DNA of 5,768 bases from a virus, in IMG/VR virus record IMGVR_UViG_3300029495_000075, positions 1 through 5,768 of that record, one strand, 5' to 3'. Below the pieces are notes generated by a model. It saw nothing but the letters and a program-made list of their open reading frames with translations, did no database searches and was not told the origin of the DNA. Made by a program: the position numbers and the translations under genes. Of the stretch, positions 698 through 5,768 are shown piece after piece. How positions within the stretch are numbered: the first letter of the stretch is position 1; the number at the start of each line of letters is the position of its first letter.

Positions 698-739
698 CAA
701 AAAGTAATATATAAAGAAAAAAGAAAGAGAGGTGTCAAC

Positions 740-770
740 TGGCGCAAGATAGACAAGTAATCTTGCGCCA
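740..770 (+). promoter_or_regulatory. Perfect hairpin (11-bp stem, 9-nt loop AGACAAGTA) 5 nt upstream of the rep start. Candidate replication-origin stem-loop and/or translation-control element.
   Basis: TGGCGCAAGAT (740..750) pairs with ATCTTGCGCCA (760..770) with no mismatch. An SD-like GAGGTG at 729..734 lies 5 nt upstream of the stem, and an iteron-like TCAACT abuts the stem base. Confidence 0.6.
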
Positions 771-775
771 AACCT

Positions 776-1771
776 ATGCCATGTACAAACCCGAATGTTT
801 TCCAGATGAACACGAAAAAGCCAACCATGTGGGGAAGTCTAAACTACCTAAAGAAACAGGACCTAGAACAAACCATCATGGACGGCGTAAAAAAAGGAAA
901 CCTCGCATTATTGCCATGCGGAAAATGTGAATACTGCCGAAAACAGATGGCAGACCAATGGGCAACGAGAATAGAACTAGAGGCCCAAAAATGGAAAGAT
1001 GTGATTTTCGTTACAATGACCTACGATGAAGAACATGTTCCATACGGCGAAATTCTAAAAGGCTACCAAAGTATTCAATCTCAAACAGTAAGCAAAAGAG
1101 ACGTGCAGCTTTTTCTAAAGCGTCTCAGAAAAGCATACAAGAAACCGATAAAATACTTCATAGCAGGAGAGTACGGAGACAGAACAAAAAGACCACACTA
1201 CCACGGAATTTTTTTTGGACTAAAACCAGAGGATGGAGTATGGTACAAAAACCAAAAGGGCAACGCATACTTTAAGAGCGAATGGCTAACGAACTTATGG
1301 GGAAAAGGATTTGTAGACTTTTCCCCAGCAGCACCAGGCTCATACGCATATGTGGCACAGTACGTGAATAAAAAAGCAATCGGCGCAGAGCAGAGCACAA
1401 AATACTGGATGCAAGGCCGTGAGCCAGAGTTTAGAATCATGTCAAAAGGCATCGGGGAAAAGTACCTAAAAGAGCACATGAACGAAATACTAGAAACCGA
1501 CAACATCACATGCGCAGGAGGGCGGCAGAAAAGGCCACCAAGGTACTTTGATAAGCTACTTGATAAGGATACCAGCAAAGACACTGAAAACTATTTCAAG
1601 GCCCATTCTGACGAGCTGACAGCAGTGAGAGCCAAAAGACGAAGAAACGCAGTGCTAAGCCTTGTAAACTTAGAGCAAAACACCAGTGTTCCATACTCAA
1701 CATACCTAGAAATACAAAAAGAAAAAGACAAGCAAAAACAAAAGTGGAGAGAACCGAAAGAAACCTTATAG
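776..1771 (+). CDS. VP4: VP4 replication initiation protein (HUH rolling-circle endonuclease)
   Basis: The N-terminus MPCTNP.. and the Cys cluster PCGKCEYCR are typical of gokushovirus VP4. Motif 1 is FVTMTY. The HUH motif is PHYHGIFFG (HYH at 1196..1204). The catalytic tyrosine pair YVAQY sits at 1349..1351 and 1361..1363, followed by VNKK. Stop TAG at 1769..1771. Confidence 0.92.
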   Translation: MPCTNPNVFQMNTKKPTMWGSLNYLKKQDLEQTIMDGVKKGNLALLPCGKCEYCRKQMADQWATRIELEAQKWKDVIFVTMTYDEEHVPYGEILKGYQSIQSQTVSKRDVQLFLKRLRKAYKKPIKYFIAGEYGDRTKRPHYHGIFFGLKPEDGVWYKNQKGNAYFKSEWLTNLWGKGFVDFSPAAPGSYAYVAQYVNKKAIGAEQSTKYWMQGREPEFRIMSKGIGEKYLKEHMNEILETDNITCAGGRQKRPPRYFDKLLDKDTSKDTENYFKAHSDELTAVRAKRRRNAVLSLVNLEQNTSVPYSTYLEIQKEKDKQKQKWREPKETL

Positions 1772-3134: not shown

Positions 3135-3540
3135 CGTTCTAGTGCGATACTACGGAATACCAACCGAAAGAGTGACAAGCAAAACCGGCAGCGAAACAGC
3201 ACCAACGTGGAAAGCGGTAAAGCGACCAAACGGCACAACGGACTACATCCGACAACCGGATGAAAATGTCTACGAAAAAATTCAAAAGGCAGGCGAAGGA
3301 TACGACCTCGCAAGCGCAATCGCGAGACTAGAAGCCGGAGATTTTTCCATCAAAGCAAAGAGCACAATCTACACAGAGGGCACGCCACTGGAAAATCTGC
3401 CTAAAGACATTGTGACGATGCACGAAACGGCACAGAGGGCGGCGGAAACGCTGGAAGAGCTGAAACAGAAACAGCAGACCGAACAGCCGAAGCCGGAAGA
3501 AAAAAAGGAAGAGGTGAAGCAGAACGAACCGGAACAGTGA
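3121..3540 (+). CDS. VP3: Putative internal scaffolding protein (VP3-like), 139 aa with a charged KQKQQTEQPKPEEKKEEVKQNEPEQ tail
   Basis: AAGGAG (3108..3113) lies 7 nt upstream. It overlaps the previous ORF by 14 nt. Its position immediately upstream of VP1, its size and the segment Y.EGTPLENLPKD......A..A.E.LEEL loosely resemble gokushovirus VP3. The family call is tentative. Confidence 0.5.
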   Translation: MLNPNVLVRYYGIPTERVTSKTGSETAPTWKAVKRPNGTTDYIRQPDENVYEKIQKAGEGYDLASAIARLEAGDFSIKAKSTIYTEGTPLENLPKDIVTMHETAQRAAETLEELKQKQQTEQPKPEEKKEEVKQNEPEQ

Positions 3541-3543
3541 AAA

Positions 3544-3569
3544 CCATTTCGCGCAAGTGCCGCGAATGG
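3544..3569 (+). promoter_or_regulatory. Hairpin enclosing the VP1 initiation region (9 bp with one bulge, 7-nt loop CAAGTGC)
   Basis: CCATT(T)CGCG (3544..3553) pairs with CGCGAATGG (3561..3569). The GTG at 3557 is in the loop and the ATG at 3566 is in the 3' arm. There is no adjacent SD. Confidence 0.35.
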
Positions 3570-5218
3570 AAAGACCGCGATCAAAATTTGACCGCAGCCA
3601 TCAGCTCTTAACGACCATCAACGAAGGCGAACTGGTACCCATCTACATGGACGAAGTGCTACCAGGTGACACAGCACGGGTACAACTTAACGGGCTTATC
3701 AGAATGAGCACTCCTATCTATCCTATCATGGATAACTGTTACATGGATATATATTTCTTCTTTGTGCCTGCAAGACTTTTGTGGTATCACTTTGAAAATA
3801 TGTTCGGTGAAAATGAAACCGACTACTGGGCAGAAGATACGGAGTATTCAACTCCTAAATGCACCATCGGCGGCACCAGCGGCCTTGCAAATGGTTCCAT
3901 CGGCGACTATTTCGGACTGCCGACACAGGTAACGAACGCGCTGGAAGTGAACGCATTACCTGCACGAGCATACTGCAAAATATACAACGAGTGGTTCAGA
4001 GATGAAAATCTTGAAGCGCCGCTTATGGTGGGATACAAAAAGACGGATGACGGCGCAACAAATGCAGACGCAAGCAAAGTAACCGAAAATGCAAACGCTC
4101 TCGACCAGACGACCAACACCAGCGAAGCAACGTTGTATGCAATGAAACCAGCAAAGGTGAGCAAGTTCCACGATTATTTCACATCTTGCCTTCCTTCACC
4201 GTTGAAAAATGCAGAGCCGGTAACGCTGCCAATAACAGGAGCAGCGGGAATATATGCTTACTCAGACAAAGAACTAAAAAATAAAACAGAACAAAACATA
4301 AACAGCTTTACAAGTCAAACAGACGCCGGAGGAACACAAAAACAAAGACTTTACGACATGATCCTATGGGAAGGAACCCCGGCACAAACATATGTAGGAA
4401 ACGGAACGGAAAAAGAACTAAGCTATCTCGGAGCAGACCTTAGCAGTGTAACCGCAACAACGATTAACGACTTACGGCAGGCCATCGCACTGCAACATAT
4501 CTTCGAAGCAGATGCAAGAAACGGCACGAGGTACAGAGAATTCCTTTCCGGGACGTGGGGCATAACAAGTCCGGACAGCCGGCTGCAAATTCCAGAGTAC
4601 ATTGGCGGGCAGCGAATTGCAATCAATGTGAATCAGGTGGTGCAGACCAGCCAAACAGACACCACGACCGGGCAAGCACTGGGCAACACAGCGGCATACA
4701 GCCTAACGACCTGTTCAAAACAGATGGTAGACTATGCAGCAACAGAGTACGGCTATATCATCGGGCTGGCAGTGGTACGAGTGGAACACAGCTACCAGCA
4801 GGGCCTTGGAACCAAATGGACGCGCGGCGGCCGATTCACGTACTACGACCCGCGATTAGCGGCACTGGGCGAACAGCCAGTATACAACAGAGAAATCTAC
4901 GCAGACGGAAGCGAAAAAGATAGCCAGATTTTTGGCTATCAGGAAGCTTGGGCGGATTACCGCTACAAGCCTTCCTACGTAACCGGAGAAATGAGGTCAA
5001 ACTATCAAACGTCTTTGGATGCATGGCACTATGCAGACGACTATGACAAGCTGCCGACACTATCGGCAGAGTGGATTCAGGAAGGACGTGAAAACATCGA
5101 TAGGACTATTGCGGTAACGTCCGCAGTAAGTCACCAATTCTTGTGTGATTTCTGGTTCAATGAAACGTGGTACAGGGAAATGCCAATCTACAGTATCCCG
5201 GGCATCGAAAGAATCTAA
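3557..5218 (+). CDS. VP1: VP1 major capsid protein (Microviridae F-protein family). The start is GTG 3557 or, perhaps more likely, the in-frame ATG 3566.
   Basis: Hallmark gokushovirus motifs: SKFDRSH, LVPIYMDEVLPGDT, YFFFVPARLLW, HDYFTSCLP, TINDLRQAIALQ..E.DARNGTRY.E, RLQIPEYIGG. Stop TAA at 5216..5218. Confidence 0.95.
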   Translation: MPRMERPRSKFDRSHQLLTTINEGELVPIYMDEVLPGDTARVQLNGLIRMSTPIYPIMDNCYMDIYFFFVPARLLWYHFENMFGENETDYWAEDTEYSTPKCTIGGTSGLANGSIGDYFGLPTQVTNALEVNALPARAYCKIYNEWFRDENLEAPLMVGYKKTDDGATNADASKVTENANALDQTTNTSEATLYAMKPAKVSKFHDYFTSCLPSPLKNAEPVTLPITGAAGIYAYSDKELKNKTEQNINSFTSQTDAGGTQKQRLYDMILWEGTPAQTYVGNGTEKELSYLGADLSSVTATTINDLRQAIALQHIFEADARNGTRYREFLSGTWGITSPDSRLQIPEYIGGQRIAINVNQVVQTSQTDTTTGQALGNTAAYSLTTCSKQMVDYAATEYGYIIGLAVVRVEHSYQQGLGTKWTRGGRFTYYDPRLAALGEQPVYNREIYADGSEKDSQIFGYQEAWADYRYKPSYVTGEMRSNYQTSLDAWHYADDYDKLPTLSAEWIQEGRENIDRTIAVTSAVSHQFLCDFWFNETWYREMPIYSIPGIERI

Positions 5219-5228
5219 GAAAGGAGAA

Positions 5229-5254
5229 AGCCGGGCAAAGACCCGGCTATTTTT
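5229..5254 (+). terminator. Intrinsic terminator/attenuator hairpin between VP1 and VP2
   Basis: A 7-bp GC-rich stem AGCCGGG/CCCGGCT (5229..5235 with 5242..5248), a 6-nt loop, one A, then TTTTT (5250..5254). Confidence 0.6.
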
Positions 5255-5256
5255 AA

Positions 5257-5768
5257 ATGGGTACACTTTTATCATGGATGCCGTACATCATGCAGGGACT
5301 TAGCCTACTGACAAGCGTTGCAATGAGTTCAAACCAGAGCAGTGCAACAAGCAGCCAAAGAGCCGGAGAAGAAACAAGCAGCGGAAGCGAAACAACCACC
5401 GGAAGCCTGACAGCACCGCAACAAATCGGCTCAACACAGATTGGAACACCAACAGGCATCACCACATACAACAATCAGGGCAGCGTAAACATGGCAAACG
5501 GCATGAGCTTTTTAAGCTCTATTATCAGTAATCTGATGAACGCAGGAAGCCAAGCAAGCGCAAAAAAATACAACTCCGCAGAAGCGGCGGCAGAAAGAGC
5601 CTTTGCAAAGGAAATGCGCGGCACAGCATATCAGGACACTGTAAAGGACATGATAGCGGCGGGCATCAATCCAATACTAGCGGCAAACAACGGCGCTACA
5701 GCAACACCAAGCGGAGCAAGTGCAAGCATCGGAACACAGCATTACAACCAGCAGAGCGCACAAGCGGC
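5257..5768 (+). CDS. VP2: VP2 minor capsid / DNA pilot protein, N-terminal part. It runs off the window and continues at position 124 of the circle.
   Basis: The frame is open from ATG 5257, directly after an in-frame TAA at 5254..5256, to the window end, and matches 1..502. Alternative in-frame ATGs are at 5278, 5290 and 5323. The N-terminal region is Ser/Thr/Gly/Gln-rich. Confidence 0.78.
   Translation, partial: MGTLLSWMPYIMQGLSLLTSVAMSSNQSSATSSQRAGEETSSGSETTTGSLTAPQQIGSTQIGTPTGITTYNNQGSVNMANGMSFLSSIISNLMNAGSQASAKKYNSAEAAAERAFAKEMRGTAYQDTVKDMIAAGINPILAANNGATATPSGASASIGTQHYNQQSAQA
5646..5768. repeat. Right copy of the direct terminal repeat (identical to 1..123)
   Basis: Same comparison; offset 5645. 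Confidence 0.95.

Follow-up and report, generated by a model that had tools for sequence, protein, structure and literature searches.

The DNA analyzed here, referred to throughout as the window, is a stretch of 5,768 nucleotides (nt) from the IMG/VR virus record IMGVR_UViG_3300029495_000075. It corresponds to the genome of a gokushovirus, circular and some 5,647 nt long, in which bases 1-121 are a repeat of 5648-5768, and its closest GenBank record is Gokushovirus WZ-2015a, from human faeces, with 93% identity. The + strand carries all the genes: VP2 (5257 through the junction to 502), VP4 (776..1771), several small open reading frames, an M15 peptidase, ORF5, VP3 and VP1. Immediately before VP4 there is a hairpin, at 740-770, which together with a short conserved box at 731-737 forms the element whose probable role in the replication of these phages is the subject of the present work. 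VP4 (331 amino acids) is the replication initiator, an HUH endonuclease (Pfam PF23343, E = 2.4e-19, its sole Pfam match) without a superfamily 3 (SF3) helicase domain; it has HYH at 141-143 and YVAQYVNKK with tyrosines at 192 and 196, and the residues H141, H143, Y192, Y196, K199 and K200 are invariant in 25 homologues. Because of an in-frame stop at 758-760, ATG 776 is the earliest possible start of VP4, and it is confirmed by the M-x-C-x-x-P N-terminus conserved among the VP4 homologues.

The original prediction for this locus had pointed to a perfect 11-bp hairpin before VP4, and the geometry is as described: the 5′ arm TGGCGCAAGAT (740..750) and the 3′ arm ATCTTGCGCCA (760..770) are perfectly complementary and enclose a 9-nt loop (751..759; + strand, AGACAAGTA; − strand, TACTTGTCT), which on the − strand contains a CTTG core like those of phiX174 and pC194, while the spacer AACCT (771-775) leaves 5 nt to the VP4 ATG. 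The 5′ flank given there, GTGTCAACTGG, is likewise found at 732-742. The box (731..737), which we assign to the − strand, is TGACACC there and GGTGTCA on the + strand, and 65 close relatives all keep it unchanged; next comes a variable spacer, AC at 738..739, that measures 0-5 nt in relatives. The element is defined by a spacer of 0-5 nt, a stem of at least 7 bp and CAAG 16-17 nt past the box, and the window has a 2-nt spacer, an 11-bp stem and CAAG at 754-757, 16 nt past A737. A sequence resembling a Shine-Dalgarno (SD) motif, GAGAGGTG (726..734, + strand), overlaps the box and is the sole SD candidate for VP4 in the window clade. Inverted repeats of at least 9 nt within 60 nt number only four genome-wide, the hairpin among them, and the fold of the 52-mer as single-stranded DNA (ssDNA) reaches -12.6 kcal/mol vs -3.6 +/- 1.6 for shuffled sequences (z = -5.8, with 0/200 shuffles as good); the RNA fold of the hairpin is also stable.

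The close relatives comprise 68 IMG/VR loci with a VP4 protein identity of 79-100%, and the upstream comparison was made on the 60 loci that retain the VP4 start and the region before it, plus GenBank KT264784 (L001). In these, a conserved block runs from GAGGTGTCAA to the 3′ arm and the sequence changes on either side, as the upstream region varies by subclade and the spacer to the ATG is AAACCT, GACAAT or GTAACAAAA. Positions 720-764 are the least variable part of 690-1800, with a minor-allele fraction of 0.03-0.05 vs 0.09-0.14 in VP4 (70 relatives), evidence of purifying selection on a non-coding block. The stem changes in a compensated manner: at the pair 740-770, 8 sequences have T-A and 6 have C-G, and at the pair 744-766, 7 have A-T, 5 have G-C and 2 have C-G, with no broken cells at either, and the covariation score of the close clade is 0.242 vs 0.105 in shuffles (reached by 0/500). 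The loop CAAG is invariant within the window clade. The geometry of 11 bp and 9 nt is the variant of a small subgroup, since in most close relatives 749.761 is an A.G mismatch and the result is a 9-bp stem with a 13-nt loop. The original prediction had suggested comparing stem compensation with loop conservation in relatives, and had named the lack of conservation of the hairpin among them as grounds for abandoning it; what the comparison gave was a covarying stem beside a loop CAAG and a box that are kept, in an element conserved in close and distant relatives alike.

The distant relatives were 75 loci obtained with a profile of VP4 homologues (VP4 identity 31-44%), in which the element was searched for as GTGTCA followed by a hairpin with CAAG in its loop, and it was recovered in most of them. 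Altogether, an element with a GGTGTCA box, a covarying stem of free sequence and a CAAG loop is present in about 130 VP4-encoding microvirus loci, and the cultured gokushoviruses carry it with slightly divergent boxes (SpV4, ~510-554; Chp2, ~2903-2951; phiMH2K, ~3297-3343). The (G)GTGTCA box appears in almost all of the 69 unique distant-clade elements and CAAG in nearly all members of the family, two of them having CTAG. A search of 78 distant loci (257 kb) for the linear motif GTGTCA-N16/17-CAAG gives 57 occurrences vs 0.6 expected from shuffles, and a perfect hairpin of at least 7 bp is found at 52 of these 57 vs 0.9% at random anchors. Across the elements the stem has 7-15 bp, the spacer 0-5 nt and the loop 8-18 nt, and these lengths compensate one another, so that the distance from box to CAAG is held constant (16 nt in 40 and 17 nt in 27 of the 69). 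The stem sequence is mostly free, with a 5′ arm that ends in CAGTTAC in many elements, and RNAalifold finds in 46 diverse elements 8 consensus pairs, with compensatory double changes in all 8. A covariance model built from diverse copies gives a single match in the window (729-773; 37.5 bits, E = 2.4e-7), matches SpV4, Chp2 and phiMH2K with E ~1e-5, and detects the element in further loci in which the pattern search had missed it.

The position of the element with respect to VP4 is far less constant than its internal spacing. The window clade has it 5-9 nt 5′ of the VP4 ATG with no SD between; in the L081 and L090 clades 25-26 nt separate it from the ATG, and a normal SD stands in this interval; in the L003, L004 and L073-L106 clades it follows the VP4 stop by 0-89 nt; and in most environmental clades and the cultured phages it is found 60-260 nt upstream of VP4, on the opposite strand. 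Where the element stands just after the VP4 stop (L003, 1015-1060; L082, L098, L099, L102, L114) a T-rich tail comes next (TTTGTC, TGTTTTATTG, CGTTTTTTAG, TATTTATTTT), and there the element may double as a terminator of VP4; secondary, clade-specific uses of the element are possible. The element can stand on either side of VP4 and in both orientations, and a separate SD may be present or not, which speaks against translation, or any function as RNA, being its primary role and points to a site that acts at the level of DNA. In summary, the element is conserved, its stem covaries, the spacing of its two motifs is fixed and the element is independent of the VP4 start codon: it is VP4 that the element accompanies, and not the place where VP4 begins.

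A known DNA-level site comes into view when the element is read on the strand opposite GTGTCA, on which it becomes stem-(A)CTTG(A/T)T-stem-TGACAC(C). In phiX174 the annotated origin is CCCCCAACTTG/ATATTAATAACACTATAGACCACC (the slash marks the cut, at 4305/4306), and a deep-mutagenesis preprint of 2026 confirms its 30 nt, the cut site and the catalytic residues, and finds that synonymous changes in the codons of the origin are detrimental. Aligned with it, the − strand of the window reads TACTTG-TCTATCTTGCGCCAGT-TGACACC against AACTTG/ATATTAATAACACTAT-AGACCACC. In the cleavage core (TTACTTG/TCT in the window and CAACTTG/ATA in phiX174) ACTTG is shared and the flanking bases differ, many relatives having ACTTGAT; the second box, which in an origin of the phiX174 type is AGACCAC 16 nt past the G, has its equivalent in the TGACACC of the window − strand, and the box at 731-737 is accordingly proposed as the counterpart of the AGACCACC end of the 30-nt origin. 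The original prediction had seen a phiX-like motif in CAACTGG of the 5′ flank; this is not conserved, as relatives have CAACCGG, CAAACGG, CAATCGG or CACCTAG, and the resemblance sits instead on the other strand, as ACTTG, 16 nt and TGACACC.

This match makes a VP4 nick-site hairpin the likeliest reading, and we consider it probable that the hairpin at 740-770 and the box at 731-737 are the viral-strand (rolling-circle) origin of this gokushovirus, its copy of the family-wide element. The nick-site stem-loop that had been predicted is thus retained in part: a rolling-circle origin served by the HUH protein VP4 is the best supported reading, but the reasons that were put forward for it fail, and the assignment to the plus strand has to be reversed, given that in the window it is the minus strand that has the phiX-like polarity. 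The mechanism could be as follows. In the supercoiled replicative form the inverted repeat would extrude and the loop would be exposed as a single strand; VP4, with its two tyrosines, would recognize the TGACACC box and the loop on the strand 5′-stem-TACTTG/TCT-stem-GT-TGACACC-3′, would cut past CTTG (predicted, by analogy with phiX174, at 753..754 on the − strand, between the complements of 754 and 753) and would remain on the 5′ end, while the 3′-OH would prime the host DNA polymerase. One round later, the regenerated hairpin would be cut and re-joined, giving a circular single strand for packaging, and in the window this released strand would be the minus strand, to which all the mRNAs are complementary.

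The orientation of the element divides the family. The phiX-like reading falls on the coding strand in the cultured phages (SpV4, Chp2 and phiMH2K) and in the environmental clades, as it does in phiX174 (the usual orientation), and on the non-coding strand in the window and in every gut clade that shares its side of the VP4 tree (the window orientation); the tree needs just three changes of orientation, two of which are single long-branch outliers (L115 and L127). If the element sets which strand is nicked, and hence displaced and packaged, the phages on the side of the window should expose the non-coding strand as ssDNA. Substitution spectra were polarized by tree-based parsimony and are expressed in coding-strand notation as the ratios C>T/G>A, G>T/C>A, T>C/A>G and A>T/T>A, always in this order; for calibration, 15 natural phiX174-clade isolates of known polarity were used, with 14 natural isolates taken from GenBank, since IMG/VR gave just 6 loci.

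The phiX174 clade gives ratios of 3.14, 2.18, 2.44 and 1.66, with C>T 105/1126 vs G>A 47/1238 among singletons and doubletons (p = 5e-8). Three clades of the usual orientation run in the same direction: L108 (3.39, 2.23, 3.02, 1.54), L110 (2.27, 1.55, 1.54, 0.98) and L119 (1.42, 0.98, 1.57, 0.96). The window clade is the mirror image of phiX174, with 0.31, 0.16, 0.77 and 0.35; among its singletons and doubletons there are G>A 103/722 vs C>T 45/672 (p = 5e-6) and C>A 42/672 vs G>T 6/722 (p = 1e-8), and at four-fold degenerate sites C>A 11 vs G>T 0 (p = 2e-4). Two other clades of the window orientation have all four ratios <1, and the singleton analysis agrees with tree parsimony. The mutational strand asymmetry, then, tracks the orientation of the element, and transcription is unable to explain the flip in the spectrum, because the sense of the genes is identical in all the genomes compared. 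Base composition is suggestive, as all window-orientation clades have a coding-strand AT skew between +0.26 and +0.44, and the skew at third codon positions (L073-L147) is +0.36 to +0.56 in the window-orientation gut clades and mostly -0.2 to -0.67 in those of the usual orientation, with some environmental clades and phiMH2K as exceptions. The fact that phiMH2K and some usual-orientation environmental clades are also A-rich led to the rejection of base-composition skew as a marker of polarity, and the polarized spectra were used in its place.

To our knowledge, Microviridae have been described as positive-sense only, and the cultured gokushoviruses package the coding strand. With a phiX-like origin on the non-coding strand and all four ratios mirrored, and besides these the strong excess of A over T in the coding strand, the balance tips slightly towards the view that the large human-gut clade of the window, which occupies one entire side of the VP4 tree, uses an inverted replication origin and packages the strand complementary to mRNA, in other words, that it consists of negative-sense microviruses. 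Selection for A-ending codons, or a different mode of replication in the host, are other conceivable causes of the flip in the spectrum.

Several considerations weigh against these interpretations. The similarity to phiX174 comes down to a pair of short motifs at a matching distance and was recognized post hoc; over the 30-nt origin of phiX174 the identity of the element is 13/30, the base after CTTG is T in the window clade and not A, and the covariance model matches neither phiX174 nor a G4-like genome. In a few lineages the element lies as far as 700-1200 nt from VP4. It is by comparison with phiX174 that we infer VP4 nicking at the hairpin, the exact position of the cut and the strand that is cut. 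As regards polarity, the change of orientation is in essence one ancient event, apart from the outliers mentioned, and therefore the association with the asymmetry amounts to a single phylogenetic contrast; furthermore, the spectra do not separate a viral-strand origin from a complementary-strand origin.

The latter is the alternative that best survives, although we regard it as improbable. According to it, the hairpin on the packaged strand would recruit host priming (RNA polymerase, primase or PriA) for the conversion of ssDNA into duplex, following the precedents of G4 oric, the primosome assembly site of phiX174 and the single-strand origin (sso) of plasmids. A conserved non-coding hairpin with a conserved loop on the packaged strand would fit this role, and so would an orientation that follows the strand with the ssDNA-type mutational signature, as that of an sso would. 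It is also the role suggested for the Cap-Rep hairpins of small microviruses, where the matter was left unsettled (PMC9865509). However, loop and box are kept across very different hosts (Spiroplasma, Chlamydia, Bdellovibrio, gut Firmicutes-type and environmental), which points to a reader encoded by the virus and not to host factors; the motifs and their spacing match the Rep-cleaved origin of phiX174 and not the primosome site; the element is near VP4 in most lineages; and none of the plasmid ssoA loop motifs considered was seen in it.

Were control of VP4 translation the primary role, the mRNA hairpin would either draw a remote SD, GAGGTG (729-734), up to AUG 776, making a split ribosome-binding site of the type of T4 genes 38 and 25, or throttle VP4 synthesis. 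In the window clade this geometry is indeed present: there is no SD between hairpin and ATG, a purine-rich SD (GAGAGGTG, GCGAGGTG or AAAGGAGGTG) is always 5 nt 5′ of the stem, and the stable RNA fold leaves about 10 unpaired nt from the SD to the AUG. Outside this clade, the association with a gene start is not conserved, as in many clades an element with identical box, spacing and loop follows the VP4 stop, in L081 and L090 a normal SD stands between hairpin and ATG, and elsewhere the element is on the strand of non-transcribed sense, an inversion that an RNA function would not outlast. Moreover, GGTG belongs to the conserved box wherever the element sits, and the apparent SD is thus at least partly derived from the box. 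As a primary role, translation control is therefore very unlikely; as a secondary one, confined to the window clade, it is doubtful though conceivable.

An origin like those of the circular Rep-encoding single-stranded (CRESS) DNA viruses, in which VP4 would bind iterons and nick the + strand in the nonanucleotide loop or in the CAACTGG flank, was the layout originally put forward, and it is now hard to credit. The order iterons-hairpin-rep does exist in the window, and the window loop does have 9 nt, but loop length is variable (13 nt in the majority of close relatives, 8-18 nt in the family as a whole), and no NANTATTAC motif is present; CAACTGG varies and VP4 lacks the SF3 helicase, as stated above; the cultured gokushoviruses carry the GTGTCA/CAAG reading opposite their genes; and the mutational signature places the ssDNA strand opposite the + strand here. 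Nor do the iterons belong to the origin, as had been assumed, because the array is a separable module of about 220 nt that moves independently of the hairpin. It consists of the TTTCAACAG array and a CTACTACTAC...ACAAGTTAATA tail, is non-coding, and is found at 503-720 in the window, at 1201-1417 in L003 and at 1201-1424 in L004; its DNA identity is 70-78% across many gut gokushoviruses, at differing positions and orientations: in L001 it is separated from the hairpin by 240 nt, in L003 it stands downstream of VP4 and in L004 it is inverted. The copies in the L004 array read TTATCCACA or TTTTCCACA, which are DnaA boxes. The idea that the iterons are VP4 binding sites coupled to the hairpin was rejected on account of this independent mobility and of the DnaA-box-like copies, and the “degenerate iteron copy” that had been seen in the 5′ flank is reduced to a shared TCAAC pentamer, whose last base is variable in relatives. 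In some genomes, GC-rich tracts of alternating purines and pyrimidines (e.g. GCGCGCACGCGCGCGAAACGCGCACGCGCACGC) occur near the module or the hairpin (L001, 720-755; L003, 1115-1160; L004, 1432-1470), and they are absent from the window.

There is equally little probability that the element is some other kind of signal, such as an intrinsic terminator or attenuator, the operator of a regulator or a known structured RNA. The T-rich tail that often follows it where it trails the VP4 stop would favor a terminator, but in the window and its clade no T run exists past the stem, the terminator scan does not list the hairpin, Rfam gives no family above noise for it, its orientation flips with respect to transcription, and a covarying stem with a conserved loop and flank at a fixed linear distance is atypical of terminators. 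The window has two further hairpins, one at 3548-3566, directly 5′ of the VP1 ATG (3566), and one at 5229-5248, between the SD and the ATG of VP2 (5257), with a terminator-like score on both strands. Finally, a nick inside VP4 in the manner of phiX174, the outcome that the original prediction had named as fatal to it, and which would leave the hairpin with another role, has next to no likelihood, since its sole candidate, 1556-1585 on the + strand (CTACTTGATAAGGATACCAGCAAAGACACT = ACTTGATA, with CTTG, 17 nt and then GACAC), although no other ungapped stretch of the genome matches the phiX174 30-mer better (19/30) and the two motifs stand correctly spaced on the coding strand, is at the level of chance (shuffled genomes reach at least 19/30 in 44/200 trials), contains a Leu codon within CTTG whose third position is free to change among clade members (CTT, CTA, CTC, CTG), and has no equivalent in the VP4 of other window-orientation clades.

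If we accept a viral-strand origin nicked by VP4, the consequences extend beyond this genome, as the Gokushovirinae probably outnumber every other group of ssDNA phages in gut and environmental viromes, and in the open-access literature no description was found of a gokushovirus viral-strand origin or of antisense packaging. The 45-nt element would offer a landmark of orientation and of starting point for thousands of metagenomic microvirus genomes. Should the gut clade package the antisense strand, then strand-aware ssDNA virome data, models of mutational bias and arguments on codon usage in ssDNA phages would all need a different reading.

Among known systems, the likeness to CRESS viruses is one of general design: in both, an HUH Rep nicks (or would nick) the loop of a hairpin beside rep, the stem covaries and the loop is conserved; the differences are the motif and length of the loop, the absence of Rep-specific iterons and the lack of an SF3 helicase in VP4, and the lineage of the CRESS Reps is unrelated (Kazlauskas et al. 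2019, PMC6668415). Among microviruses there are the Cap-Rep hairpins that Olo Ndela et al. (2022, PMC9865509) described in small “roodoodoo-” and “reekeekee-” microviruses, with identical loops and compensatory substitutions in the stem, for which these authors proposed a role in the initiation of the negative strand, left it unsettled and drew no link to the phiX174 nick motif. They resemble the present element by description, in their conserved loops and compensatory stem changes.

The plasmids of the pC194/pUB110 type share with the element an HUH-type Rep and the presentation of the core in a loop. In pC194 the nick falls within CTTG/ATA. The origin core of this plasmid is CTTGATA (PMC7072734), and CTTGAT is located in the loop of a small inverted repeat, TTCTTATCTTGATAATAAGGGTAACTATTGCC in pC194 (PMC7072734). 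The differences are that this is a plasmid and not a virus, that its stem is far shorter and that no TGACAC box was seen at 16-17 nt. When the pC194 origin CTTGATAATAAGGGTAACTATTGCC (PMC7072734, table A2) is placed beside the CTTGATGTAACTGTGC of many usual-orientation gokushovirus elements, CTTGAT and then GTAACT are common to both.

The comparison with phiX174 itself rests on (i) the (A)CTTG core, followed by A or T; (ii) a second box, (T/A)GAC(C)ACC, that starts 16 nt past the G of the cut site, a spacing kept in 67/69 elements; and (iii) homologous HUH Reps with two tyrosines, in which H141/H143 and Y192/Y196 of VP4 correspond to H263/H265 and Y343/Y347 of protein A. The two origins differ in their location, since ori(+) of phiX174 (CAACTTG/ATATTAATAACACTATAGACCAC, cut by the gene A protein between G4305 and A4306) is inside rep and the gokushovirus element is intergenic; in the segment between the two motifs, which in phiX174 is an AT-rich spacer and in gokushoviruses is the 3′ arm of a covarying hairpin that puts the core in the loop; and in the strand, as the phiX-like reading is on the coding strand in phiX174 and opposite the genes in the window. 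If the link holds, the 30-nt origin of phiX174 and the gokushovirus hairpin would be two forms of one ancestral Rep recognition site.

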